Virus record (IMG/VR): IMGVR_UViG_3300033073_001045
Span: 32,001-96,000 of that record
Length of the DNA: 64,000 bases
Source: a virus
Lineage: Duplodnaviria > Caudoviricetes
Strand: one strand, 5' to 3'
Shown here: positions 2,945-59,950 of the stretch, in pieces
Layout: the number at the start of each line of letters is the position of its first letter
How positions within the stretch are numbered: the stretch's first letter is position 1
Translations under genes and position numbers: made by a program
The notes under the pieces: generated by a model
Told to the model about the DNA's origin: nothing
What the model saw: only the letters and a program-made list of their open reading frames with translations
Databases searched by the model: none

Positions 2945-5722
2945 TTAAGCTCCAATAGCGTCAAGTCTATTTTTTATTTCTTTTATGGCTAAAACTAAAT
3001 ATGCAGATAATCTGTCATAAGAGACAGACTCAATCTCTCCAGCATCATTATAATTAACTATTGTATTTAATTCTTGGATTTCCTCTACATCCTCAGCAAT
3101 TAAACCTGAAGTCAAAACTGGTATTGAATCTCCCATAAACTCTTGTTTATACTTAAATGTAGCTGGTTTTAGCTGACTAATAATGTCTAAATATCCAGTC
3201 TCATTTAAATATGATATGTTATCTTTATATCTAATACTTGATGAGCTAACACGCATATAACCAGATGAATCCTGAACAATAGTGGTACCACTATTTACCC
3301 CTAAAGTATTTGCGTATATATTTCCTGATGGTAACAATTTGGTTTTCATGGTACCAACAGTGTCATTTGCTGCACCGCTATGTCCAACCATAACAGATCC
3401 ACTTATTCTTACGTCATTCCACCTATATGTTTGTGTACCTAAATCATAATTTGCGCCACCACCCCAATATGGGTAACAGTGTGATGTCCACCCACCAATA
3501 GTAGTATTTTTAAATCCAATAGAACCAACAACTAATCCTGTTACACCATTTAGTGTTCCTTGACTATCAATATAAGCAGCTGTATCTGTTGCTGTATTGA
3601 CAGCCAGCCTTCCACTAAAAGTTCCAGATGCTCCAGTAATATTTCCTTTAAATACTGCGTTGCCGCTAGAATTTATAGAAAATAAAGTAGCTCCAGTAGA
3701 ATCATACGCTGCAATTCCTGCACTATTTAATATAACCATATTAGCGCCAGGTGTAGCTGTAGTATCAGTATTGATCTTAAATCCGCTAGATGTAATTGTT
3801 ATTCCGTTAGAATTTATTGATGTTACTTGATTTTGTGCATTTGCTATTAAATATCCACCAGCTTCAAGTTTTGTATTTAATGCAGTTTTAGTGGCATATG
3901 TAGTATCTGTTCTTTGTGTCCAAGATGCTCCAGTCCAGGTTTTTATAATGTTTCCGTTGGCTGTATCTATCCAAATATCTCCAACTCTTGTTGCTGTTGG
4001 TGTTGTATCTTGAGCAAAAGTAGAATTTTTTGTAGCCAAAGATGTTGTAGTGGCATATCCGCTTAAAGATGCAACAGTAGCGTAATTAGATAATGAAGCA
4101 GTTGTCGCATAGCCATCAATTGTTGAGCTTGAAAAAACAGCTCCAGTAGCATATAGCTTTCCATTTTTATCTACCCTAAATGGAGCATTTGCTGCTGTCT
4201 GAGAGCCAACCCAAATTCTATATGTGGCATCGCTTGCACTTAATTTAACAATTGATGCCAGTGTTCCACTTGTATCACCTACTGTAAGATTACCGTTGCT
4301 TTCAAGTTTTGTATTGCTACTATAGATAGATCCTGTTGTTTGAGCAGTTCCATCTATTGTCCATCCACCTATATAGCCCTTACGTGCATCAATCTTTCCA
4401 TCTGCTGCTTGTATTGCTACTGTTTGTACACCAGCTGAATCATGTGCAAATAGTCCGCTTGGCTGCATAACAACTCTTCCAGCAGTTAAAGACCCAGCAT
4501 ATATACTTCCAGTAGTTACTTCTAAATTACCAGTAAACGTTCCACCTGTTGCATTTATTTTGCCAGTTGTATATAAATCTGATCCGTCCCAGTATAAAAA
4601 TGATGTAGCGCTTCCAACCCTAAACTGACCAGTATTTAGCCAATAATTATGACCACGATTTGTTGTAGATTTATTTAATATGATTCCACTATAAGTTCCA
4701 TCTACCTGAGATGGGGTAGTCGTCGTTGAAGTATTTATTGACTGTGATATGCCAGTGCCGATTTTAAATAAGTCAGCAGTTTTTCCACCAATAGATAAAA
4801 TTGATCTTAGCTGTGCCCAAGCATCAGAAGGTGCAGTTGAATCAACGTATGGGCCCATAGTTTTTGTTACGGCAGTAGACCAACTGATTGCATTAAATGG
4901 ACTTACCGCTGTAACTTGATAATAATATAATGTATTTGGAAGAGCGCCAGTTACAGTAAATCTAGTTGTAGCTTTTCCGTCAACTTTGCCATATTCCCAT
5001 AAAGGATTTGTAGTGGTGGCTGGATTTTGAGTTGTCCACCTAATTGCATAGCCATTAGTATTTGAATCTGTGTTTGCTGTCCATGTTATTACTATGCCAG
5101 CATTAAATCCAGTTAAGTCTGCAGCATCCTGAACCATAGTTCCAGAAGTTGAGCCTGGTGCGGATGGCGCAGTTGTTGTGTCAACTTCTGCATTGAGTGG
5201 TGTTACTGGACCAGCAGTAGTTTCAGATATATTTGTATCAAGCCACCTATCTCTTGTTACAACCTTAACCCATCTTGGTGCAAAGTCTGGTGTATTTATA
5301 GACATACTGTTTGCTGTACCAACATAAACAATGTACTGTTCTCCAGCAAATGCACCAGTTAAGCTTTCATAAACTATTACATCTTCATGTTCACTTCCAG
5401 CCTGAAAATCAAACTTGACTCCATATGATTTAAGTCCTGGTGTCAAAACTAAATTCAATACTGGTTTTGTTAAATTAGGGATATCGAACGTGGTCTCAAT
5501 CCACGGCGATAAATCTCCCTGTACTTCTGCACCAGTAGTTTCATCTTTATAAATATAAGCAGCCTGAAATCTATATTTTTTATATTTTACTAAAGGTAAA
5601 TCAATTATTTTTGTGTAGGATGATGCACTTACAGACGATGCGGCTTTAATCGCATCTTCTGTCTTTATTTGTAAATCTGGAGGAAGTGATACTCCTCCGC
5701 CACCACCTAATGAATCCAACAT
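2945..5722 (-). CDS. tail fibre/spike with FN3 domain and C-terminal intramolecular chaperone (peptidase S74-like)
   Basis: FN3 pattern (ITW...GY.IRW...LPNTLYYYQVTAV); SSIRYKDNI...LKP..F.YK...GLIAEDV...Y..L...L..AIKE chaperone signature. Confidence 0.8.
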   Translation of the reverse strand: MLDSLGGGGGVSLPPDLQIKTEDAIKAASSVSASSYTKIIDLPLVKYKKYRFQAAYIYKDETTGAEVQGDLSPWIETTFDIPNLTKPVLNLVLTPGLKSYGVKFDFQAGSEHEDVIVYESLTGAFAGEQYIVYVGTANSMSINTPDFAPRWVKVVTRDRWLDTNISETTAGPVTPLNAEVDTTTAPSAPGSTSGTMVQDAADLTGFNAGIVITWTANTDSNTNGYAIRWTTQNPATTTNPLWEYGKVDGKATTRFTVTGALPNTLYYYQVTAVSPFNAISWSTAVTKTMGPYVDSTAPSDAWAQLRSILSIGGKTADLFKIGTGISQSINTSTTTTPSQVDGTYSGIILNKSTTNRGHNYWLNTGQFRVGSATSFLYWDGSDLYTTGKINATGGTFTGNLEVTTGSIYAGSLTAGRVVMQPSGLFAHDSAGVQTVAIQAADGKIDARKGYIGGWTIDGTAQTTGSIYSSNTKLESNGNLTVGDTSGTLASIVKLSASDATYRIWVGSQTAANAPFRVDKNGKLYATGAVFSSSTIDGYATTASLSNYATVASLSGYATTTSLATKNSTFAQDTTPTATRVGDIWIDTANGNIIKTWTGASWTQRTDTTYATKTALNTKLEAGGYLIANAQNQVTSINSNGITITSSGFKINTDTTATPGANMVILNSAGIAAYDSTGATLFSINSSGNAVFKGNITGASGTFSGRLAVNTATDTAAYIDSQGTLNGVTGLVVGSIGFKNTTIGGWTSHCYPYWGGGANYDLGTQTYRWNDVRISGSVMVGHSGAANDTVGTMKTKLLPSGNIYANTLGVNSGTTIVQDSSGYMRVSSSSIRYKDNISYLNETGYLDIISQLKPATFKYKQEFMGDSIPVLTSGLIAEDVEEIQELNTIVNYNDAGEIESVSYDRLSAYLVLAIKEIKNRLDAIGA

Positions 5723-7040: not shown

Positions 7041-7057
7041 ATTAACATTCTACCATT

Positions 7058-10000
7058 TCATTCAGTATAAATCGATCTAGCTTTGATGGATGTTGTGCCG
7101 TTCAAATCAGAGCTATTAGATACCTCTATAATAACATACTTGCCCACCGTTTGACCAGTGTCTTCTGACGAGTAAAAATTATTAGATGGGTATGATATTT
7201 CAACCACATCTCCTATTTTAAGAAGCGGATTAAAGAACGTCTCAATTGAAACAACTCTCTGCTGCTTTGACCATTGTTTTTTAATCCAATCATGTAAGGA
7301 TTTTGCTTCACTTTCTTTTTGAAGCCACGTTGACTCAAATGCAATGCCTTGTTTTTTATCCTCTTCAGAAGCATTTATATCTACATACTCAAATGGGTCT
7401 TTTGGAAGCACGTAATTACCAACAACTATAAATCTTTTATCGGCACCGTCTGCAAGTTCTGTGAATGCGCCTGAGTTATTCATAACAAAAACATCCATGG
7501 AAAATGAATCTAATGATTCCCCAATTACAGTAACATTTGGATTTAAAATTGTTTGAGTATACTTTGGTGTTCCAGGGGAATAGTAATATCTGGTTTGAAT
7601 TCTTCTTATTTCTCTTGCAACTGGACCAAATTCTTTAAGCCATACTGGAGAATCTGTTACATTTGCTTTACCGCTGAACACAAAATCTGAAAAATATTTT
7701 ACAATTGCTGAGTTGGCACCAAGGTATCCTTGATATAAATTATATGATTGATTTTGAGTATATTCTGAATCAGATATTGGTTTAACATAAATATAATCAT
7801 ATGATACTGGACCTTGATATGAACATAAAGCAATTTTTTTTGTTATGGTTAATGGTGTTTTGTCATGTATAGCAAATGTAGTATTATTAAACATTATTTT
7901 AAATACTAAATTTCTTTCAGTACCATTTTTTATTGTTTCGTTTACTTTTATATCTACTCTATATAGCTCTCCGCCAGATATTCCAGTTATAGCAGATTTT
8001 CCAGAATTTGTCTGAGTGTCGCTCATTTCTACAAGTTTACCAGCAACAATCTTATACATAGTTATATCTCTATAATTTTTATCCTTGGTAACATTTTGAC
8101 TAGTATTTATACATAAAAAGTATCCACTAGTATTATCTTCATTTAAGCAAAAAGCAATTCCACCCTTTGTTCTTTGTTCTGCAGTATCTTGACCAGATGC
8201 AGTTTTTAATAGAGGAAAATACATGCTAGTCCCAATTACAAAATTTTTGCTAGCAAATGATCCTTGATCATTTGTATAATTATTTACTGGCCCGTTAGTA
8301 AAGTCTTGTTCTATTGTATTTGGAGACACCATAGTTAATAAATTGTTATCTGTATATATAGTTGTTACTACACCGTCCTTATCAGTTGATTGCGCTGAAA
8401 CAGTATTAGGTGCAAATATAGTCATCATAGATCTTGGAACATCTTGCGAAAAGTTTTCTGACCACTGATTATTTTTAGCTGGTATGGTGTCTAACGTAAA
8501 CTTAGTATTGTTTAAAGAAGACGTACCAGACTTAGTATCTAAAATTCTTCCAGACCACTCAAGCTTCAATTTTTCAGTATTTACTTCATGTGCTATTGGA
8601 GCTGGTAGGACACCAAATGCATTTCTTGTTTTAATTCTATACTGAGAGTCTGGTGCAAATGTATTTGGCTTGGAAAGTCCCTCAAACTTGCTTATATCTG
8701 AATCACTTGTTATCCAAACATATTTTAATCCAGATTCATCTACTGGCATGTAGTGAAACTTAATTGCATCATATTCTATTATTTCTTGATTTATTACAAG
8801 GTATCCAGAATATGCATTTAACTTTGTTGCATACCCGTCGATAACAATTGGCTGAAGTGTGACTACGCCAAGAGGTGCAGCTCCAGTTCCATTTAAATCT
8901 GGCTCAGGTGTTGCAGATGCTGGTAATGAATTTATAAGTGCAGCTGCACCCAAAATCATTACTGGTGCATCATATAAGTCATCAGCATTTTTTCCAGCAT
9001 ATGAAGAAGATAATCTTGGAGTATATGATATTTTAACTGTTTTTACAGATGGAACATCTGAAGAATTCATTGCTATTATGTTAGATAGATTGAGTCCCTT
9101 ATTGTCGTATCTAAATTTAAAATCTGACGTTCTATTTTTAAATATATACTCTCTGGTATAAAACTGTAAAATATTGTTCTCATCAAAAGTTGCAATCATC
9201 TGAGTATCTTTACAAAGATCTTGAATGTGTTGCCAAACGGTTTTAGCATTATCCGTGTACCAATAGTATGGTCGAATACTAGATGTATCTGGATCAGCCT
9301 TATTAAAGTTATAGTTTGTAAATCCTACTGAATCAAGAAGTCTTCTAACTATAGACTGAGAGGATGATTCCTGTATAACTATATCTGGAGGGAATATTTC
9401 CTGTAATTCTTTAGCCCCATCTAATGCTTGGGCGGAAACATTTCCAAATTCATCAATACTATATTCTGATAAAAAATATATTCCTTGTTTTATATTTTCA
9501 GATCCTATTTGAAAAAATGGCCTAATAATAATATCTTTATAAAAGTTTGTTTTTGTAGTATCAAATGCATAAGTTTTGTCATAAGAGAAACAAGATTTAT
9601 CAAAAAAATTAAACGAGTAATCAGAATAGTTTGAGGTTACGTTGCCCACTGGTAATAGTCCATCAGCTTCATCTGACGCATTTTTTGTTATATTAAATGA
9701 CACTAGGTTGTCAGATATATCTTTAACATATCTTCCAGACATTTCAATTATTCCGATATAGCCGTTAGCAACTGTTACTGTATTGATCTGAAGAGATAGT
9801 TTGCTTATATTTATTGGTGACGACGGTGATATAAATTCTGTAGTAGTCCAACTTGTTCCATTATAATATAAGTTTAAAATACCATCTGATGGTATAGATA
9901 CTGTTGCATTTGATGCAATTGTTAATTCACCGCCAGATATTTGAGTAGCTTTTATAGACCATGTTGCTGGAAGTCCGTGTGATGATTCAAATTTAATGGT

Positions 10001-16900: not shown

Positions 16901-19070
16901 ATGTGACTCCAGGAATTTTTGGCATATCGTCGCTCATATATGCCTGTGGATTTTTACCAATTCTAATATTTACTGGCTTTGAACCTGGAACTGTTCCAAA
17001 AATTGTTCCCATCTGTGCAATTCCAGAAGGAATTAAATGCGACATGTCTCTTGAGTGTGGTTTACCTACAAGTGGATTATCTTTATCTACAACTCTTCCA
17101 CCAGCGCTACCTGCTGCAAGCACTGTTCCAGCAACCGTTGATATCGCAGGTTGAACTGCAACCTTTGCTGAATTTGCTTTTGTTTCTAAATCTGCTAAAG
17201 ATTGTGTAAGAGTATTTACAGCATTTGATAATACTATTGTTGCTTCTGAGTCAGAATAAAATGTTGTTGCAAGTCCTTTAGCGGCAGCATCTGCAGCAAT
17301 AATCTCTGGAGTTAATAACTTAAATCCTTGTCCGCCCTTAGCTATTTGGCGAAGATGAAATATTCCTTTGATTACATATCCAATAAAGTTGCCCATAACA
17401 CCAGTAAGCATGATGAGTGGACCTGCAATTGCTGTGAGTCCGCCAAGTGCATTTAAAAATGTTTTAACTGGACCAGGAAGATTTTCAAAAAACTTAATAA
17501 TTCCATCAACAACCTTTAATACTTTTGTGCTTACTTTTAAGAACTGTTCGCCAGCTTGAGCAAGATCAGCTTGAACTGTAGCCCAGGCTCTCTTAAATTG
17601 ACCAGATGCTGACTCTGTCATCATCTTTAATTCTCGTTCTGATATGCTAGCTAAATCAGATACACTAGCTTTCATTAAGTCCATAACCTGCAATGTTTGA
17701 GATCCAGATTTACCAAGGTTTTCAAAAAGTGCAGACATTCTTGCATATTGAAACTTTCCAAATAGCTGTTCAATTGCTCTTGACTTCTGCAATGGGTTTA
17801 GTTGATCCAACGCAGATTGTAAATCAAGAATTGTTTGTGTTAAATTTCCAGCATTTGACGAAACAATTTGTTCAAGGTTAATTCCAAATCCAGTAAACAT
17901 TTCTTTAGCAACTTTTGTTGGATTGATGAGTGAAGCCATTGCTGACTTAATAGCATTTGCACCTTCTGAGGCATTTACTCCACCTTCTTTCATTGCTGTA
18001 AGATAAAGGGCTAAGTCTTTTACATCCCCACCAAGAGACTTAACAACTGGACCAGCTTTTGGAATTGCTTCAACTAAATCTGCAAGGCTTGTTGATGTTT
18101 GGTTTTCAACTGCGTTAAGGAAGTCAATAGACTCTGTTAGCTGATCTGTATTTTGTTTAAATGCATTTTGAATAGCAAGTGTTGCCTTCATTGCATCTTG
18201 TCGCTCTACTTCTCCAAGCACTGCAAGTCTAGATGTTTGTCTTGTTGCTTCTAGCAGCGCATTGCCTTGCTGACCAGTTGCTGCGAGGTCAGCAGCAAGA
18301 GCGATAGTATCTTTATAAGCAACACCATATGAACTTGCTATCTCTTTTGCTGTAGCAGAAACATCTTTTCTTACTTTTGCAAGATCTTGTGAGGATACTG
18401 CAGCGAGACCTCCATAAACTTTTGTTAATCTTACAAGTTCTTGATCTGCTTCTCTAAATGCTTTTTGTGCTGCAGCTCCAAATGCAACAAGAGGAACTGT
18501 TAGACCAACTGTTAATTGTCGACCAGCCCACTGTGTATTTTTACCCCAGTTAATTAATTGATTTGATCCATCAAGCATTACCTTGTTCATAATCGCAGCT
18601 TCTTGTCTTGCGATTGCCATCTTGTTTTTTACTTCGTCAAGGCCCTTTGCAACCATAATATTGTATTGCATTATTCCCTGTGCATTTTTACCAACAGGTT
18701 GTACTATGGCTTGCTGTAGCATGACCTGCTGTTTAGCAAGATCTCTAATTAATGTGCTTGTTTTTTTAGTGTGGCCGTTCCAAGCGTTATAATATTCGTT
18801 TAGCTTAAGACGGCCACGATCTAAATTTTTACCAAACTTTTCTACATCTGATGATAGAGAAACAAAGTGTGAAGAAAATTGCCCAGTAGATCTCATTGTT
18901 TCCGCAAATGATTTATTCATTACGGCAATTTGATTTGCTAGCTTAGAGTTTGTTCCAGCTGTTGTTTCTTGCAGTTTTATGAGTTGGGCAGTAGTTGCAG
19001 CTAGCTGTGTTCGTAAACTGCTAAAATCTGCATTGGCGGTAATGTTGGTCGTGATCAAATTATCTGCCAT
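10923..19070 (-). CDS. tape measure protein with internal cargo domains
   Basis: 2715 aa, Ala-rich helical; TP901-type TMP core (LTVGLTVPL...NAVENQTSTSL.DL); GG...GE.GPE motifs; follows the tail chaperones. Confidence 0.92.
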   Translation of the reverse strand: MADNLITTNITANADFSSLRTQLAATTAQLIKLQETTAGTNSKLANQIAVMNKSFAETMRSTGQFSSHFVSLSSDVEKFGKNLDRGRLKLNEYYNAWNGHTKKTSTLIRDLAKQQVMLQQAIVQPVGKNAQGIMQYNIMVAKGLDEVKNKMAIARQEAAIMNKVMLDGSNQLINWGKNTQWAGRQLTVGLTVPLVAFGAAAQKAFREADQELVRLTKVYGGLAAVSSQDLAKVRKDVSATAKEIASSYGVAYKDTIALAADLAATGQQGNALLEATRQTSRLAVLGEVERQDAMKATLAIQNAFKQNTDQLTESIDFLNAVENQTSTSLADLVEAIPKAGPVVKSLGGDVKDLALYLTAMKEGGVNASEGANAIKSAMASLINPTKVAKEMFTGFGINLEQIVSSNAGNLTQTILDLQSALDQLNPLQKSRAIEQLFGKFQYARMSALFENLGKSGSQTLQVMDLMKASVSDLASISERELKMMTESASGQFKRAWATVQADLAQAGEQFLKVSTKVLKVVDGIIKFFENLPGPVKTFLNALGGLTAIAGPLIMLTGVMGNFIGYVIKGIFHLRQIAKGGQGFKLLTPEIIAADAAAKGLATTFYSDSEATIVLSNAVNTLTQSLADLETKANSAKVAVQPAISTVAGTVLAAGSAGGRVVDKDNPLVGKPHSRDMSHLIPSGIAQMGTIFGTVPGSKPVNIRIGKNPQAYMSDDMPKIPGVTSINGTSTGIVAQEAAKWHAMTAAIAMQSEAEIKALKTEVMATGTVTSSLTDAYQALLPQFSEITDLAAREVQAIVAEVQANKITVDQARAKIIQLNATVEAMLAETASMTAASMGRVANLTTVPLTSQPVVDPVTGKSNMKEMFHKGTTKEIADRIARALGGVRTSGAGYNIQTTKPKLAKGGIVPGTGNTDTYHTTAEAGSFVINKAGTQANMPIIQDLLGGRPVYRNSGGNVPVVLTPGEAVVPADIAQKNMPLMYALNGGPGKTGFGLESGGNPDWTTWKKILRLQERYQNAMQNGGWQKELQHRSIMHDATVLNNKGIAIDDAVRIATQNYEEAMLPKPKGAMTENGTIDKNAWRKIREKQFVKAVKIVKDANAGLEPLKRRQLNTNAAARIGASDARPTAEMLDHIRNNPDKFGGKDFVDRLFKDLGFESKNGNWVIDKYGKVSATNLHSTHTSPDAKWGYKAAGNFGQAFWGEADLNLAANDVRRALMIKGQRSFSYFPDEVLMTDKAIKLQDNAWLKRFGTTVPQAILDRSKGIISLPSLFKLMRRGAASRALGFAHLERAANSGGQIFAQKLFGGGGVGRLFLGMPRAIKQVEQQRAMKIAMEKASAAVAESRFAHKPVTQYDDLLEPTSGRSFPVPGIGGIYSKGGDKVFVKPVLDEKAALAELRATQIARDVHGLKSPKQKVVVINDPTDPMGKRRLLALESKYDEAFAKQDGKFTTDQYFKQLVASALRGDKDLAKGNLSGDILADVGPAGVFSAASGLRDYSATMPSMKDQAVINLLGVKGGAKKFFAEATVDVPKSMTADQYHDRMIKEIDKALPKLKQTISSFDLNAEEKVIYNAMIKRLSDARSVNWRELHGIHSSVKVSEAKPMTPAAIAKLLAADELKRRQSGHSVSLSDAAFKTAANGFAIGGLIGNVTKGRAMFRIGAGFGPTGEPKPGMYQSAPWGVNSLTIGMGEKLFGKSGLTKRAQNFLYDKFAAELAKEMPYGYTKNAAGSLIKALEPSVLDSVIRSAASSLLSAPEARRRLSDIDRDILKKKYVNWESKKETPLTDSLKQLIFKLEGREMGGPVSGNKPYIVGENGPEIFVPRNSGGIIPNGYNAGGMIKLMMMQMLGMFGGQTLGKMSGIPGGEMIGAMLGSMLGMGSMGGGGSKAPITSKGKWTAPIGATKAVEGVSVNGKDLRNLTSYGSKLESLSGSTSKFARLAGFGLKALTRLNLAVGIGATALIIANKRWKDHNEHLRIGMLQYGLTSEAAKKAGLKYTDYSSKLAETAANIQALREKNQLLYESMQNAGTPIKMTIEEYKKLRKEVKETYSDQIKLINQTKGEKNTKKLAEDLKVQLMAAGLSAEEATKKIWAMFKVSNKALTASSYTIQNAGFNRIETKQDAAARAVSRYKTAASEGGREGANQVNTGLTAIDTGIQDLIDRSKKAAKADKTGNTKILTEYEAQEKMLQRLNNLEASKVKLTQATREEMIKQNPALKKVINPADTLVSLWQKMNLAAKGFTGNLANLGSEAVAALSRVADVASATIAKQNETGILKEQYAYLGKLENQYKALQKAARGQSVAQQISTRDQLRALQKQIDANNKLADARLKALDAAKQESDLARELEKKKAAYEAAVATGNTAEAQQLSLDMKGIQSTMQYNSQRAAIENARDAANKPLQAKMDAINSANEKLADNAALASENLGKLGEKIATQKQKIEDFNKAMTTLVLNAIAAGKTVDQYIKDSKAGKGDASSLLTTGKAAGVIKGDLKGVDVASEALKLMGKPIDAVTSALSSKGITMGSGDIIINGKKVDLGPNVDKNGQALKSISFAISPSTKNPTVGTGNLNAAGIQTGQIRKGLEFLDKNGKKWRVTGEGQYNTWNIEKAGYGTMKLDPNIPTIVGDRGPEMAFGGMIIPNLAKIPFSSPRYDVNKAALQMGSAQQHSGTTIQYTQHIHAAPGMNEDQLVMKAKVAAYEFLQDSIKTNAKMVGTSKNVRINT

Positions 19071-31269: not shown

Positions 31270-31301
31270 TTTTAAATTATACCACCTTGATCTTTATCAT
31301 A

Positions 31302-51483: not shown

Positions 51484-53418
51484 CTATGCAGAAATATCTA
51501 CAAGTTCACAATTCCCATCTGAACTACAAGCAAGCGTTGCATTTGTTGAAGTACCGTCTTCTGTCTCATAAAAAGATAAGTCTTCCCATCTAATATTTTT
51601 TGGCATTTTTGCAAGAAGTTCCTGATACTCTTCTTTTGATACTTCCTGGTATGGAGCCTGCTTATAAGAGTGATCTGAATGCGGAAGAAATGAAATTCCA
51701 GATACTTCGTCAAAGTGCTTATATACCCAAGCACCAACTTCCATCCATTCGTCTTCTTTTACTGAAACAGTAATTGATGGCTTGTGCTCGCACCATGCAC
51801 GTTGATAGACAAGCCAAATATTTAAATGCTCTAGTGCTGTCAAATCATTTCTAACTACAGCACCTTCTGGGGCTTTTACTGGAAATGAAAAAACATATGT
51901 ATCATTTGGCTTCATGACATCATCTTCAACTGGGATACCAACCTCTTTAAAAAATGTTGAGATTGGGTCGCCTTTTGAACCACGAACTGTACGAATATAA
52001 TATTGCGAATGCCATGGATGCATTCCTGAAGATACCCCGACCAATTGGGATACTGTACCAGAAGGCTTTACGCATGTAATAGCTGCAGACACAGGAATCC
52101 CAATTTTCCCAGCCTCTTCTGTATTAATTTCTCTTGCACGTTCACGCATTGACATTAGGAATGCTTCAAGAGCAACAATATCTTCCTTGCCAGACATAAA
52201 CTTATGTCCAAACTGTCCAGTCAAAGAAACTCCAAGAAGTCTTTCTTCTTCTGTATTGTCTTTCCATATCTTTCGAAGATATTTAAAATCAGTTAGGGTT
52301 GACTGCCACGTTCCAAGAATTGTAGCAAGCTCAACTTTGCGTTTAATGTCTTCTTTTGTATCCTTTTCACGTAGTACGACTTCTGAAAGATTACAAAACT
52401 GATAGGGACGTAGAATAATTTCTGAGCACGGATTAGTTCCGTAATGGATTTCAGGGTCTCTGAGACCATATTTAGCCGCTTGTTTCTGCGCTGCTGCGAC
52501 ATTATAGATTCCACGTTCGCCAGACTTTGAGTCATAAAGAGATTTCCATTCTGCAATAAATTGTTCCATCTCTGGTTTGCGAGAATACGCAACAGAGTTA
52601 TTAGACAAAGCTCTCTGTGGGTTATTCTCCCACCAATTACCAGATTTTGCTTGCGCCATTTCAATATCATTAATGTTAGATAGAGAAATCATAGCTGATC
52701 TACGTACACCACCAACAACAACTACCTCACCAATTTTGCACATAATATCATGAGCCTCAATTGGCTTTAACTGACGACCTGCTGCATTTTTAAATTTTGC
52801 AATAGTGAAATCAAAAAGGTTTATAAGTGGTTGTGGTCCAGATGATCGACCACCCATTGTTTTAAGTCTTGCTCCAGCTGGACGAACTTTAGAAACATCA
52901 ACTGCTGGGATGTGACCAGTCCATAAAAGTGCTAAAAGTTCACGATATGCTTTAGCCCAACCTTGTTTTGAGTCTTCAACAACAATTACTGTATCAGATT
53001 TTTCTAATGATTCAGGAACGGCAGGAAGCTTATTAACGTACTTATACTCAACAGAGAAACCAACACCTGTTCCGCACATCAAGATATACATAGTTTCATC
53101 AAATGATCTTGGTGAGTCAACTGGAACAAATGAACAGTTATATCCAGCAACATTATCTCTTTCTAATGCTGCTCCAGATGTCATTACAGAGCGCATAGAA
53201 GGCATTACATTTCTATCAAATACAAATTTTTTTAACTCATCAACTAATTTTTGATCTGGTGAGTAATCATAATTATTTTTTAAATGCTTTGTCATAAAGT
53301 CAAAGTATCTATCTACAGTTTCACCCCATGTTTCTCTTCTTCCTTCTGAATCTACCCACTTTGCATAACGTGATAGAGCAATAAAGTTTTCATAAGGGTT
53401 TTCTATAGTTTTTGACAT
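51484..53418 (-). CDS. nrdJ: class II (adenosylcobalamin-dependent) ribonucleotide reductase
   Basis: NCSF, GGVRRSA, TNPCSEI, CNLSEV and TCVKPSGT motifs; C-terminal Cys pair; no adjacent beta-subunit gene. Confidence 0.88.
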   Translation of the reverse strand: MSKTIENPYENFIALSRYAKWVDSEGRRETWGETVDRYFDFMTKHLKNNYDYSPDQKLVDELKKFVFDRNVMPSMRSVMTSGAALERDNVAGYNCSFVPVDSPRSFDETMYILMCGTGVGFSVEYKYVNKLPAVPESLEKSDTVIVVEDSKQGWAKAYRELLALLWTGHIPAVDVSKVRPAGARLKTMGGRSSGPQPLINLFDFTIAKFKNAAGRQLKPIEAHDIMCKIGEVVVVGGVRRSAMISLSNINDIEMAQAKSGNWWENNPQRALSNNSVAYSRKPEMEQFIAEWKSLYDSKSGERGIYNVAAAQKQAAKYGLRDPEIHYGTNPCSEIILRPYQFCNLSEVVLREKDTKEDIKRKVELATILGTWQSTLTDFKYLRKIWKDNTEEERLLGVSLTGQFGHKFMSGKEDIVALEAFLMSMRERAREINTEEAGKIGIPVSAAITCVKPSGTVSQLVGVSSGMHPWHSQYYIRTVRGSKGDPISTFFKEVGIPVEDDVMKPNDTYVFSFPVKAPEGAVVRNDLTALEHLNIWLVYQRAWCEHKPSITVSVKEDEWMEVGAWVYKHFDEVSGISFLPHSDHSYKQAPYQEVSKEEYQELLAKMPKNIRWEDLSFYETEDGTSTNATLACSSDGNCELVDISA

Positions 53419-53554
53419 TTATCCGACCTTTTCTCCGCCTTGCGGTTTATTTTAATGTAAGATTCCAATTCTACCAAAACAAACTTCTTTAAGGAAGAAG
53501 TTACAAAAAGTTTTTTACTTTCTTAATAATTTTTATTAGTCAACTATTTTAGTC

Positions 53555-54298: not shown

Positions 54299-54523
54299 AT
54301 GCAAAAGATACAATACGTATCTAAGTACATAGCTCTTGCAGAGGAAGGCCTTGTTCCTAGGATATTATGCCCAATGGATCAGGGCCTTCTTCTATGCAAC
54401 CAGGATATAGATGATAGTATATACTTATATTGTCTTTCTTGTAATTATAAAAAAACAATTGGTGTGTCTATGTATCAATCAATTATGGAGGCTGTGAGGA
54501 AAAATAGTGAGCATTTACATTAA
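54299..54523 (+). CDS. Zn-ribbon protein
   Basis: CPMD...CLSC. Confidence 0.7.
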   Translation: MQKIQYVSKYIALAEEGLVPRILCPMDQGLLLCNQDIDDSIYLYCLSCNYKKTIGVSMYQSIMEAVRKNSEHLH

Positions 54524-55499
54524 TGATATTAAATTCCCAGATAATCACTTATTTGATGTGATAGTTGATCCAATATTTTTAAATTTATCTTCAGAGGGGT
54601 CTTCAAATAATAAACCTTTGCATACAAAAATGTTAGTTCAATGGATACAGCATGGAATGACAATTGTTGTTGATGGTAATAATTTAATGGTTAAAAAAAT
54701 ATCAATTGATCCTGCCTCAAATAAAACACCATTTTATTTTATGCACATATATAAAAATTCTGGACTTTCTTTAAAAGAAGAGCTAATGAAATATTTTATA
54801 GGTGAGCAGGTATATATTAATTTTATTGGCCATGTTAATGATGATGAACTTCTTACATCAAAGTTAATATCAGGACATTTTGCTTCATATCCAACTGATC
54901 TATATCAAAAATATGATAAAAAGTTGCATACAGTTTCTATATTTAGAGATCCAGTAGATAGAACAATAAGCCACTTTCTGTATGAAAATAATTTAAGAAC
55001 AATGGAAGCCAGACAAAATAAAAATATGCCAACCGTAGAGGATATGGATATATTTTTATCTGATCATAATAATTTTAGTATTATAAAAGATCTACAGTCT
55101 AAGAACCTTACATCTACAATGGATACAGAGCTATCTAACAAGGTTGCCCAATCATTATTTACTGGAGAGTCAGACATACATCATTCAATTATGGAGCTTG
55201 GGTCTACATCAAGATTTATTTCTAGCTCAACAGACGAATCTAATTGGCGTAATCACTTGCAAAAACTATCTTTATATGGAACCACTAATAATAGAGATAA
55301 ATTTTTAAATGATCTTGTTGGCCTTCTTAATTATGAAAAATATGAGGCTGATGGAATTAGAAATATTGTAGTAAATAGAAATCCATATTCTACAGAACAA
55401 TTCAAGAAGTTGTTGCCTAAAAGAATGATAGAATATATTAAAGATTTTAATCAGAACGATATGGCGCTTTATGAACACCTTTTGTCTAAAGGATTATGA
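54507..55499 (+). CDS. sulfotransferase-family protein
   Basis: FMHIYKNSGLS (5'-PSB-like), GHF, FRDPVDRTISHF.Y (3'-PB) and terminal N..D..LY. Confidence 0.8.
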   Translation: MSIYINDIKFPDNHLFDVIVDPIFLNLSSEGSSNNKPLHTKMLVQWIQHGMTIVVDGNNLMVKKISIDPASNKTPFYFMHIYKNSGLSLKEELMKYFIGEQVYINFIGHVNDDELLTSKLISGHFASYPTDLYQKYDKKLHTVSIFRDPVDRTISHFLYENNLRTMEARQNKNMPTVEDMDIFLSDHNNFSIIKDLQSKNLTSTMDTELSNKVAQSLFTGESDIHHSIMELGSTSRFISSSTDESNWRNHLQKLSLYGTTNNRDKFLNDLVGLLNYEKYEADGIRNIVVNRNPYSTEQFKKLLPKRMIEYIKDFNQNDMALYEHLLSKGL

Positions 55500-55600
55500 T
55501 GCCTGAGTACGAGTCAAAACCAATACCAGTTACCGATGCAATGGGTAGAGAAATATTTTGGGAGGATATAGGGAGACCAGATGAACGAACAAACAAGTAA
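55496..55600 (+). CDS. small hypothetical protein, 34 aa
   Basis: MMPEYESKPIPVTDAMGREIFWEDIGRP...; ATGA coupling. Confidence 0.5.
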   Translation: MMPEYESKPIPVTDAMGREIFWEDIGRPDERTNK

Positions 55601-55772
55601 TTTAGAAGAGAACCTACCAATGGTTAATTACATAATGCTTCATAGAATTTATGACGTGTTAACTATTATGGCAAATGCGGTAGATCCAGATAAAACATCT
55701 AAGATGATTGATCTTCATGAGCAAGGATTCCTTCTTGGCCCAGCACCTTCATTTACACCAAGCGAGGAATAA
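55581..55772 (+). CDS. hypothetical protein
   Basis: 63 aa; GGAG RBS. Confidence 0.7.
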   Translation: MNEQTSNLEENLPMVNYIMLHRIYDVLTIMANAVDPDKTSKMIDLHEQGFLLGPAPSFTPSEE

Positions 55773-57160
55773 TGGTAGCACCATTTTTTTATAAAAAAAG
55801 AAAGCATCCCTTTGTTCCAAGACCAATAACAAAGAAATATTTTTATAAAAGCGGACTAGATTTAAAGGTTTCAAATTTTATAGACCCAAAAGAAATGCTT
55901 TTTAAGTCTTGGAAAAATAAGGCAGATATGTTTTTAGAAATATCTAAAAAGCATGGACCATTTTCTTCGTTTTTTATTGCAAATGAATTAACTTTTACAA
56001 TTTTTGATCCTGCTGATGTATATGAAGTTCTTATTGGTAAACAAAATCAATTTATAAAAGGTAATGCCTGGAATAGAATTAGAAAATTTGCTGGCGATGG
56101 TCTTGTAACAGCAGAAGAACCTAACCACATGAAAAATAGAAGGTATATACAGCCACATTTTAATCATAAAAAAATTGTAGATGACTATTCAAAGGTAATG
56201 ATTAAAAAAGTTACAGAAAGACAAAATCTATATCTAGATTCAAATAAAAAAATGGATCTTCACAACGAGATGGTTTCTTTAGTATTTGATATAGTTATAG
56301 AATCTTTATTTGGCATAACAGAAAAGGTTGATTCAATCCCTGTTAAAAAGAATATGGAAATAGCAATGGATTCTGTTGAGAGAACTATTGCTCCTGGTTT
56401 AGATAGATACGATTTTACATCACTTCCTATATTTAAAAAGTTTAGAACTGCATCTTTAGACCTACATGATTTTGCAATAAATTTAATAGCAAAAAGAAAG
56501 TCTGATAAGTCTGAACATGATGACTTACTTTCTCTTTTAATTGACTCATATATGACAGATGATCAAATATCTGATGAAGTCATAACAATAATTTTAGCTG
56601 GATTCGAGACAACAGCAAATACGTTATCTTGGATTTTTTCTTATTTAAATGAGAATAAAGACATATACGATGAGTTAATTGAAGAATCTATAAAGATATC
56701 AAAGTCTAATAATTTTATTGAAGATATAAATTCATCTGAATTGCTTGATGGAATAATAAAGGAAACTCTTAGGCTAAAGCCATCTCTTTGGATTCTACCA
56801 AGAATGGCAGCAAATGATATATCAGTAGGAGATAAATTTATTCCAAAGGGTGCAAATGTAATTTTATCACCATACGTAACACATAGAAATGAAAGTGTAT
56901 ATATAGATCCCGAAAAATTTATACCTTCTAGATGGAACAATTCTTTTGAAAAGACATTGCCTAGGGGAGCCTATGTACCATTTAGCGCTGGTCCAAGAAA
57001 ATGTATAGGCGATCAATTTGCCTTGCTTGAAATGAAAATAATATTATGTTTATTTTCTGCAAAGTTTAAGATAAAAGTTCATGGAAAATTCCCAGAGGCG
57101 GCAGCAAGAGGAACTCTTAGACTTGCACATAGGGTTAAAATGAGTATTGAAAATGTATAG
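55772..57160 (+). CDS. cytochrome P450
   Basis: I-helix AGFETT, K-helix ETLR, PEKF.P.RW and heme motif FSAGPRKCIG. Confidence 0.95.
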   Translation: MVAPFFYKKRKHPFVPRPITKKYFYKSGLDLKVSNFIDPKEMLFKSWKNKADMFLEISKKHGPFSSFFIANELTFTIFDPADVYEVLIGKQNQFIKGNAWNRIRKFAGDGLVTAEEPNHMKNRRYIQPHFNHKKIVDDYSKVMIKKVTERQNLYLDSNKKMDLHNEMVSLVFDIVIESLFGITEKVDSIPVKKNMEIAMDSVERTIAPGLDRYDFTSLPIFKKFRTASLDLHDFAINLIAKRKSDKSEHDDLLSLLIDSYMTDDQISDEVITIILAGFETTANTLSWIFSYLNENKDIYDELIEESIKISKSNNFIEDINSSELLDGIIKETLRLKPSLWILPRMAANDISVGDKFIPKGANVILSPYVTHRNESVYIDPEKFIPSRWNNSFEKTLPRGAYVPFSAGPRKCIGDQFALLEMKIILCLFSAKFKIKVHGKFPEAAARGTLRLAHRVKMSIENV

Positions 57161-57725
57161 GATAGAACCTTCAATAGATAATTTAGAACTTTCTCATGGG
57201 CTTATTACAGAAGAAATATTGGAATACACAAGCAGTCAGCTCGATTATTTTTTAAGTTTAGTATGTAATCAGCAATTAGGTGTCAAAAACAATATTGAAT
57301 TTATTATAGAGCATGGTGACGATGTGCTTCCATATATAGTTTGTATTATATGTAAAGATAATAGTTTTTCTGTTACAATGGAAGAAAGCAAATCAATAAT
57401 ATCATTAAATCCTGGAGACCTACTAATATTTCCATCAGAAATGTCACACGGAATATCTAATCCAGATAATGCTGTAATAAAAAAGCTATTTTATAGGCAA
57501 AAGATTGATAACAGCATAGGTGACAAAAACTTTATAATTACATCAACGCTTATTGATAAATATGAAATAGTAATAAGTGCGAACTCAGAAGAAGAGGCGT
57601 TGGAAAAAGCAAAGGCCACTCCGATATCTAGTTGGAACCACCTTGATTTATATCCAGACGTCGAAGACAGAAAAATAATAAGATACGCAAAATGGAATAA
57701 TTTTTCAGCAAAAGCTATTGACTAA
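57147..57725 (+). CDS. oxygenase/cupin-like protein with extra C-terminal domain
   Basis: HGD...PGDLLIFPS...HGI; then YEIVISANSEEEALEKA module. Confidence 0.55.
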   Translation: MKMYRIEPSIDNLELSHGLITEEILEYTSSQLDYFLSLVCNQQLGVKNNIEFIIEHGDDVLPYIVCIICKDNSFSVTMEESKSIISLNPGDLLIFPSEMSHGISNPDNAVIKKLFYRQKIDNSIGDKNFIITSTLIDKYEIVISANSEEEALEKAKATPISSWNHLDLYPDVEDRKIIRYAKWNNFSAKAID

Positions 57726-57746
57726 TAACATAGCCTGCTTTATAAT
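57718..57746 (+). promoter_or_regulatory. near-consensus sigma70 promoter
   Basis: TTGACT-17-TATAAT. Confidence 0.75.
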
Positions 57747-57751
57747 TATTT

Positions 57752-57821
57752 ATTGAGAGTCGAGTCTACTCCTCTTATTAATGCCTACTATGGATCCGCC
57801 TCCTGGTAGGCATTAATTTTT
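57752..57821 (+). ncRNA. candidate ~70-nt small RNA
   Basis: Bounded by the promoter and a 14-bp hairpin plus T5; no ORF; the loop reads TGGATCCGCCTCC. Confidence 0.5.
57777..57821 (+). terminator. intrinsic terminator hairpin
   Basis: ATTAATGCCTACTA / TGGTAGGCATTAAT, then TTTT. Confidence 0.75.
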
Positions 57822-58527
57822 ATATGCTAATACACTTTTCAAGAGCGAGTTGATATTTTGCATTAACAATATCAAGACTAATTGCATCTGATAGTTCTGT
57901 AAATTTATTTTTTACAAGATCATAATTTTCTGTTCTATTTACTGGATTTACTACTATGTGGTTTACAGCAAAAGATGTATGTATATCAGCATAATCATCT
58001 GCCTCATCATACGCATTATCATCCCAATCTTCGTACCCAGCTTTTGCTAGAATGTCCTTAACTACAAGTTTTCTTTTTATAGGATCGGTAGTGTCTTCAA
58101 ATCTATATGATAGATGAGAATCATCTGTTCCACTTATAATTGCGTCAAGATATCTTTCAGTTTTCTTTAATACCAGTCCAGCCATTCTAATAAAATAAAG
58201 ATCGTTTGTAAGAAGTTGCGTACCAAGAACATTTTCGTTAAGCGGTGTTGTTCCTTCAGCTACAGCTTTTTCAGCATACTTTTGTGCATTTGTTAATGTC
58301 AGTACTAAATCTGATACAGCTATGTCATAAGGATTTCTTACAACTGCAACCTGTATTTGATTTTCATGAGATGTCTTCCATAGGTTTATTTTTGAGCTAT
58401 TAGTAGACTCTAGGTCAATTTTTTCAAAATATAGGCTTCCCTTAGTAGGCAACATATTTCTAATAAGCGTAGACATGTATGTACTAGATGTGCGGCGCTG
58501 AGAATTAAACAGGATCTTTTTAATCAT
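57820..58527 (-). CDS. sulfotransferase-like P-loop protein
   Basis: QRRTSSTY (PRSGTT-like), VVRNPYD.A.S and YRFED; leaderless start. Confidence 0.6.
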   Translation of the reverse strand: MIKKILFNSQRRTSSTYMSTLIRNMLPTKGSLYFEKIDLESTNSSKINLWKTSHENQIQVAVVRNPYDIAVSDLVLTLTNAQKYAEKAVAEGTTPLNENVLGTQLLTNDLYFIRMAGLVLKKTERYLDAIISGTDDSHLSYRFEDTTDPIKRKLVVKDILAKAGYEDWDDNAYDEADDYADIHTSFAVNHIVVNPVNRTENYDLVKNKFTELSDAISLDIVNAKYQLALEKCISI

Positions 58528-58598
58528 ATATAGAATTATAGCATCTTGATCATTTAAGTGCAGTGCGAAAAGTGAAAAGTGCGGCGGGAGAAGAAGAG

Positions 58599-59854: not shown

Positions 59855-59875
59855 AGTTAAATAATTATACCATTG

Positions 59876-59950
59876 TAGGGATATTGGGATTTGAACCCAA
59901 AGTCGATTGTATATAAGACAATTGCTTTAACCAGATTAAGCTATATCCCC
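59876..59950 (-). tRNA. tRNA-Ile, anticodon UAU
   Basis: GGGGATA acceptor stem, D arm GCTT..AAGC, anticodon arm ATTGT-CTTATAT-ACAAT, T arm TTGGG-TTCAAAT-CCCAA; CCA not encoded. Confidence 0.9.

Follow-up and report, generated by a model that had tools for sequence, protein, structure and literature searches.

A conserved, uncatalogued family of predicted phage small RNAs with an invariant hairpin loop

A promoter-to-terminator unit between convergent genes

Between two convergent genes of an environmental phage lies a short unit (57718-57821) in which a promoter-like site is followed by a terminator hairpin. The locus raises the question of whether it is only the end of the operon upstream or a gene in its own right and, if it specifies an RNA, what the hairpin loop of that RNA would recognise. 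Coordinates refer to the window, i.e. the whole stretch of 64,000 nucleotides that was analysed, which belongs to an IMG/VR virus record of 104 kb and 36% G+C.

The phage genome encodes a WhiB protein, and its head protease has Streptomyces phage proteins as nearest relatives, with only 43-50% identity to Streptomyces and Vibrio phage proteins. The DNA runs in which the region occurs are metagenomes of lake, aquatic, estuary and wastewater origin. From the WhiB protein, the Streptomyces-phage-like head protease and these habitats we infer a phage of low-G+C freshwater Actinobacteria. Searches of isolated phages with the region, with both flanking ORFs and with a typical family member yielded no close DNA or protein relative.

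Upstream of the unit, a + strand operon behind two strong promoters (53555 and 53678) is composed of the genes for an SLT-type lysozyme, a 330-aa ORF, a cytochrome P450 (Pfam E = 1.3e-71) and a 192-aa ORF, and ends at the TAA stop codon of the latter (57723-57725). On the other side a convergent 235-aa ORF on the - strand ends at 57820-57822, so that hairpin and T-run lie 52 nt past the stop of the last gene of the P450 operon and abut the stop of the convergent gene. The convergent ORF is itself leaderless-looking (TGCTATAAT, 7 nt, ATG). Further along, at 59875-59950 on the - strand, there is a tRNA-Ile gene with anticodon UAU (ARAGORN; Rfam 71 bits), which would read AUA in this A+T-rich phage.

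The promoter-like site, TTGACT-17-TATAAT at 57718-57746, matches 11 of 12 consensus positions with a spacer of 17 nt. Sites with at least 11 of 12 matches to the sigma-70 consensus number 15 in the genome, compared to 5.5 +/- 2.3 in shuffles, and three of them are perfect. The three perfect promoters (TTGACA-17-TATAAT) lie outside the window, at G000 4190-4218, 8768-8796 and 18128-18156 (- strand).

Folding of a 76-nt stretch of the unit gives two hairpins with an energy of -27.1 kcal/mol (z = -5.25), which none of 200 shuffles equalled. The second hairpin, a G+C-rich stem-loop at 57778-57816 directly followed by a U-run, has the form of an intrinsic terminator; it was missed by a simple terminator scan, whose loop limit of 3-8 nt does not accommodate the bulged stem. 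The predicted parts of the unit are listed in Table 1.

Table 1. Features of the unit, in window coordinates.
Feature	Position	Strand	Remarks
-35 hexamer TTGACT	57718-57723	+	overlaps the stop codon of the 192-aa ORF (57723-57725)
-10 hexamer TATAAT	57741-57746	+	sigma-70-type consensus match
Predicted small RNA, ~69 nt	57753-57821	+	start predicted from the -10 spacing, end predicted from the T-run
5' hairpin P1	57754-57777	+	outer helix, two-base 5' bulge, inner GAG/CUC helix
Terminal hairpin P3 (intrinsic terminator stem)	57778-57816	+	fold and covariation
Family loop word GGAUCCGCCUCC	57792-57803	+	GGA (57792-57794) pairs with UCC (57801-57803)
Hexaloop UCCGCC	57795-57800	+	closed by the invariant A-U pair (57794/57801)
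Terminator T-run TTTTT	57817-57821	+	overlaps the stop codon (57820-57822) of the convergent 235-aa ORF

All ORFs between 57726 and 57819 are shorter than 30 aa. Two tiny frames can be read, one from a TTG at 57754 (18 aa) and one from an ATG at 57781 (11 aa); neither is conserved, the TTG start being TCG or TAG in many relatives, and a tiny-peptide reading was therefore rejected. Amongst the relatives, the three small frames possible across the unit translate its conserved core in three different phases, from which we conclude that the unit is non-coding. The first-pass annotation had reported a near-perfect promoter, followed by a terminator with no ORF between the two, and this description holds in each of its parts: the promoter with its 11 of 12 matches is kept in relatives, the hairpin at 57778-57816 is followed by TTTTT at 57817-57821, and the only frames between them are tiny and not conserved.

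Close strains, represented by two DNA runs, carry SNPs at 57729 and 57738 in the promoter spacer and at 57827 just past the U-run, and zero differences in the predicted RNA body (57752-57821). Differences become dense again from 57859 on, within the convergent ORF. As to RNA, no run with the region was listed; two runs labelled RNA-Seq are probably DNA, are available as contigs and do not cover 57738-57938.

Relatives of the unit and their gene contexts

Single-protein locus searches of IMG/VR with the flanking ORFs gave nothing, and the exact 23-mer of the loop had no match. The neighbouring ribonucleotide reductase (RNR) gene, used as query, retrieved 80 related IMG/VR contigs. The 192-aa ORF is also present in two of these (L013 and L053), and alignment of this ORF adds two further contigs (L084 and L086); each of the four has a homologous unit after the ORF. 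The -35 hexamer (TTGACT/A), the 17-nt spacing and the -10 hexamer (TATA(A/C)T) of these four units are alike while their spacer sequences differ, and their stems differ yet still pair, with the core ATCCGCCT unchanged.

The genes preceding the unit in the window form a P450 island (54507-57725) composed of the 330-aa ORF, a 63-aa ORF, the P450 and the 192-aa ORF, which was seen only in the window and in the four contigs named above. In the other relatives, which do not carry this island, the small-RNA gene is found nearer to RNR, which makes the island an insertion ahead of a pre-existing small-RNA gene.

A gapped pattern of promoter plus core matched more than 119 IMG/VR stretches. After removal of tRNA genes and ORFs, 51 distinct sequences were left, all of one architecture; the matches that were true tRNA genes are unrelated to the family. 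In this architecture a promoter is followed, about 7 nt on, by a 5' hairpin of the form GG-UYGAG ... CUCCC and then by a terminal G+C-rich hairpin and a U-run; the longer forms have an additional middle hairpin. The terminal hairpin carries the loop word YGGAUCCGCCUCYR across the 51 sequences.

From 24 two-hairpin members we built a covariance model (R1), whose E-values are rough because of a short calibration. In the 104-kb genome of the phage R1 finds a single copy, at 57752-57826 (56.1 bits, E = 2.6e-12). Amongst the 80 RNR-linked contigs one copy is present in 62, that is in all those with enough flank, and these 62 copies lie upstream of and divergent from RNR, 1.3-4.6 kb from the RNR start. 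In each of the 18 contigs without a match, the sequence on that side is shorter than 3.1 kb. With one copy per genome or contig, in synteny with RNR, the unit is a core feature of this phage group.

In metagenome contigs, several of which are 113-116 kb long, R1 confirmed 34 of 66 pattern matches. In the GTDB species genomes there were 31 pattern matches, of which one is a true member and the rest are chance matches. This member (L206 1023-1100, 66 bits) is located on a 19.6-kb contig (JBBALJ010000057.1) of a MAG annotated as 'Bacteroidia bacterium'; this is most likely phage sequence that was binned with the MAG, and the taxonomy of the MAG is not to be taken as that of the host. No family of Rfam 15 matched, either in the window between 55000 and 60000 at E up to 10 or in six related loci at E up to 1. 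The units thus form a conserved, uncatalogued family of predicted phage small RNAs.

Promoter, 5' hairpin and terminal hairpin are kept together in more than 100 contigs, while the genes upstream and downstream vary. A promoter of at least 10 of 12 matches is found within 120 nt upstream of the loop in 76% of the RNR-linked elements, compared to 4.9% of stretches drawn at random from these contigs. That promoter and both hairpins are conserved together in differing gene contexts bears out the earlier suggestion of an independent small-RNA gene, as a prediction. A T-run of at least four follows 44 of 67 distinct family hairpins, and one of at least three follows 59 of the 67; the members in L053 and L086 are devoid of a U-run and retain hairpin and loop.

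The varying contexts bear on the possibility of a cis-acting leader, attenuator or antitermination element, whose hairpins would regulate read-through or, like the HK022 put RNA, alter the RNA polymerase. The position of the unit directly 3' of a strong promoter, as for put and nut sites, would suit such an element, as would the same-strand genes following it in many relatives and the two members without a U-run. However, the gene that follows runs toward the unit in the window (235-aa ORF) and in several relatives, and elsewhere reverse-strand tRNA genes follow, so that there is nothing for a cis element to read into. The same-strand downstream genes are served by a TGnTATAAT promoter of their own, 6-7 nt ahead of the ATG, hence are leaderless, and most members end in a proper U-run. 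We consider a cis-acting role quite unlikely. With lambda nut boxB and HK022 put the unit has in common a sequence-specific hairpin loop just downstream of a strong early phage promoter. It differs in closing with a U-run terminator of its own and in what comes next, often a convergent gene or genes served by separate promoters, and no N-like protein was identified.

As to the genes found downstream, many relatives (e.g. L111 9215-9300, L003 3700-3790 on the - strand, L010 and L020) carry after the small-RNA gene a leaderless small ORF of the form TGnTATAAT-6-ATG, whose product begins M(A/P/S)RDHFAK..M.SP.F. It is followed by a gene for a protein of about 280 aa starting MFYDREDCIK or MYFYDRPDCIK. 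In the window this gene pair is absent downstream of the unit.

Covarying stems and an invariant loop

An alignment of the 67 distinct terminal hairpins of the family (A4) was used to follow pairing in P3. Its cells pair in 97.4% of cases, compared to 75% in shuffles, and 11 of 12 pairs show change on both sides, which none of 500 shuffles attains. Sliding of the partner strand brings pairing down to 30-52% (about 50% for a slide of one column). In the 24-sequence alignment of P1, 91% of the cells pair, and the outer pairs vary on both sides (CG/UA/UG/AU and AU/UA/GC). The sequence motif GG-UYGAG/CUCCC of P1 is conserved as well, and the P1 loops are A/U-rich (UUAUG, UUUUG or UUCG). Folds of four single relatives, run independently, showed the same hexaloop and the same P1 shape. 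With compensatory base-pair changes and no conserved reading frame, the unit has the properties of a structured non-coding RNA.

The closing A-U pair and the hexaloop UCCGCC (A4 columns 12-19) are invariant in all 67 hairpins. Since the family was gathered by a pattern and a model containing the loop word, this invariance is partly by construction, and members with a changed loop could be missed outside the syntenic set; this is mitigated by the 62 syntenic RNR-linked copies, every one of which carries UCCGCC. The pairs beneath the loop are variable. The one directly beneath the closing A-U is G-C in 56 and A-U in 11 of the 67 hairpins, with no mismatch, and the second is G.U in 46, G-C in 16, U-A in three and A-U in two. 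Covariation in related phages had been named beforehand as a check on the small RNA, with an unconserved loop on a conserved stem as the outcome that would speak against it; what is found is a conserved loop on a stem with compensatory changes.

These data also bear on a further reading of the locus, in which nothing but an intrinsic terminator, partly bidirectional, stands between the convergent genes and the promoter match is due to chance. Its place fits, with hairpin and T-run just past the operon stop and against the convergent stop, and the covarying stem would be a trivial matter, as terminator stems covary for trivial reasons. Terminator loops, however, are not normally conserved, and here the loop is invariant over the 67 variants; the 17-nt-spaced promoter and the 5' hairpin travel along in different gene contexts, and members without a U-run retain the hairpin. 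A bare terminator is for these reasons highly improbable. The caveat attached to the first description, that the hairpin may simply terminate the P450 operon, is set aside on the same evidence, since promoter, 5' hairpin and invariant loop are found together in varied contexts.

Two further identities were considered for the hairpin and rejected. Likeness to a tRNA T-loop, an attP site or a tRNA-Arg anticodon arm is limited to a minority variant (UCGAAUCCGCC), whereas the majority reads GGAUCC. A CsrA-type decoy with GGA in the loop is out, as members with GAA, UAA or AGA in place of GGA have compensating changes on the partner side.

Likeness to the 16S rRNA 3' tail and possible targets of the loop

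The first-pass annotation had proposed that the loop mimics the 3' tail of 16S rRNA (GGAUCACCUCC) and thereby either blocks GGAGG sites globally or decoys a factor binding the anti-Shine-Dalgarno (anti-SD) sequence, to the advantage of leaderless phage mRNAs. The loop region at 57791-57804 does read TGGATCCGCCTCCT as then given, one substitution and one insertion off the 16S tail, the window copy being GGAUC-CG-CCUCC and the rRNA GGAUC-A-CCUCC. The accompanying caveat that GGA and TCC may pair was right: in the fold of the window copy GGA-UCC pairs shrink the loop to the six bases UCCGCC.

Across the family the word GGAUCCGCCUCY is in the majority (54 of 67 variants), and with the top of the stem open all its Y-variants could still form wobble pairs with GGAGG. 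The words of the loop region are GGAUCCGCCUCU in 38 hairpins, GGAUCCGCCUCC in 16 (including the window), GAAUCCGCCUUU in eight, UAAUCCGCCUUA in three and AGAUCCGCCUCU in two. CCUCC itself is present in only 16 of the 67 variants; in the rest it is CCUCU, CCUUU or CCUUA, with the partner strand altered to match in each case. In the alignment U58 pairs with A51, C59 with G50 and Y60 with G49, i.e. the flanks of the hexaloop covary. The last two letters of CCUCC and the GG of GGAUC therefore change together as stem pairs, U-A and A-U included, which indicates selection on pairing and not on identity to 16S rRNA. CCUCC is thus not a conserved and exposed element of the family, and the CCGCC which is invariant and exposed has a central mismatch to GGAGG. 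Genome-wide, matches to GGATCACCTCC within two edits number 33, compared to 24.7 +/- 5.4 in shuffles, so that this degree of likeness to the 16S tail occurs at chance level.

Leaderless mRNAs are widely used in Actinobacteria, the likely host phylum, and about 13 phage ORFs are of a leaderless type, with a TATAAT-like -10 box ending 5-8 nt before the start codon. Examples of the latter are found in the window at 58528-58550 (- strand), 31270-31290 and 7041-7060, and also in the left arm of G000. An SD-like motif, in contrast, precedes about 61 of the 132 phage ORFs, structural genes amongst them. With about half of its genes SD-led, a general block of SD sites would harm the phage itself, and a stoichiometric block of all SD sites by one small RNA appears implausible.

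We regard mimicry of the anti-SD sequence as very unlikely and do not retain it as a functional feature, CCUCC being a minority form whose last two letters are covarying stem pairs. The likeness is probably incidental and mostly a by-product of the stem pairs, lost in three quarters of the family variants, and it should not be propagated as a finding. An equally small chance is given to a variant of the idea in which GGAUC-CG-CCUCY acts as a 16S-tail look-alike when the top three stem pairs breathe, titrating SD sequences or a factor of the anti-SD tail. Were it true, it would shift translation toward leaderless early and middle phage mRNAs in an actinobacterial host rich in such messages.

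The explanation we favour, on balance and with somewhat better than even confidence, is a free-standing small-RNA gene whose RNA of about 69 nt would be made by the host RNA polymerase and would recognise, by analogy with the 6C RNA, a GGCGGA-type target RNA through its hexaloop. The polymerase would start early at the near-consensus sigma-70-type promoter (57718-57746), transcribe the 5' hairpin (GG-UYGAG...CUCCC) as part of an RNA covering about 57753-57821, and stop at the G+C-rich terminal hairpin and U-run, a hairpin which would also end the upstream SLT-P450 operon. UCCGCC, displayed on the terminal hairpin, would be the working part and recognition surface, and most likely would contact a GGCGGA-type sequence of a host or phage RNA by a short G-C-rich loop interaction. 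UCCGCC is conserved and single-stranded in 67 of 67 variants, as expected for the seed of a base-pairing small RNA. Judged from sequence, recognition mediated by the loop is the best-supported mechanism.

Base pairing is favoured because of a precedent in Actinobacteria. The 6C RNA has six conserved C in cytosine runs of its hairpin loops, and these C-rich loops bind G-rich regions of ribosome-binding sites without a chaperone (PMC6486639). The phage RNA would resemble it as a short, hairpin-built, chaperone-independent small RNA of the actinobacterial world, the likely host phylum being the same (a WhiB protein is encoded by the phage), and in a C-rich loop as the proposed contact surface for a G-rich sequence, which for the phage RNA is by analogy. 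In distinction to 6C, the phage RNA has one C-rich loop only (UCCGCC, with four C), its 5' loop being A/U-rich; the Rfam 6C model has no match in the phage unit; and 6C is chromosomal while the phage element is phage-borne, its one GTDB match lying on a phage-like MAG contig. The RsaE/RoxS-type small RNAs of Firmicutes have UCCC or CCCC motifs matching GGGA or GGGG and pair with Shine-Dalgarno regions. They are alike in concept, with a C-rich single-stranded motif on a small promoter-to-terminator RNA, but the phage word CCGCC mismatches the canonical GGAGG, and there is neither sequence nor structural homology.

Searches of the phage for a target of the loop were negative. In the phage group GGCGGA is not enriched at SD positions, where 3.5% of its occurrences are found, compared to 26-38% for GGAGGA and AGGAGG. 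Duplex energies of the loop against the start regions of all 132 phage ORFs were no better than those of shuffled loops (best -18.0, compared to -18.2 +/- 2.0). The target, if it is an RNA, is thus probably a host RNA. GGCGGA recurs at two places, the RNR leader (see below) and the ribosome-binding site of a 66-70-aa early gene, which is ...GAAAGGCGGAC... in eight relatives; the latter was rejected as this phage has GGCGAC there.

For pairing, six bases make a short seed, and a loop that stays the same while its stem varies would be equally expected of a protein-binding site. The loop A-UCCGCC-U could be read by an RNA-binding protein of phage or host, with the RNA serving as operator, decoy or cofactor. 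Hairpins of the boxB and operator type, whose loops are recognised by sequence, show just this combination of fixed loop and free stem; the conserved sequence of the 5' hairpin (GG-UYGAG/CUCCC) and the empty target searches in the phage agree with such a role. No candidate binding protein is linked to the unit or varies with it, however, the neighbouring genes differing amongst relatives, and C-rich loops of actinobacterial small RNAs are documented to base-pair (PMC6486639). On this evidence a protein-binding hairpin is possible but rather unlikely, and pairing of the loop with a target RNA is the reading we prefer.

Nearly all known regulatory RNAs of phages are from phages of enterobacteria, and to our knowledge, and as far as literature searches showed, none is described for phages of the abundant low-G+C freshwater Actinobacteria. 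The predicted gene is present wherever the syntenic region can be inspected, in a phage group of many lake, estuary and wastewater metagenomes, which points to a core function, probably in early host takeover. A predicted RNA of 69 nt with one loop to mutate offers a cheap and concrete experimental handle.

The leader of the RNR gene was also considered as a target, as it has AGGCGGA in most relatives. It was rejected since AGGCGGA there forms the 3' arm of a covarying hairpin that belongs to the leader itself, and since the word changes without a change in the small-RNA loop. In the window the hairpin (CCGC-AAG-GCGG, followed by AGAAAAGG) lies at 53419-53460 on the - strand, ahead of the RNR gene at 51484-53418. 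Its 3' arm is complementary to the loop of the small RNA in most, not all, relatives. Across the 80 related contigs the hairpin covaries (UCCG/CGGA, CUGCC/GGCAG, ACGAC/GUCGU) and looks like a conserved 5' stem-loop beside the ribosome-binding site.
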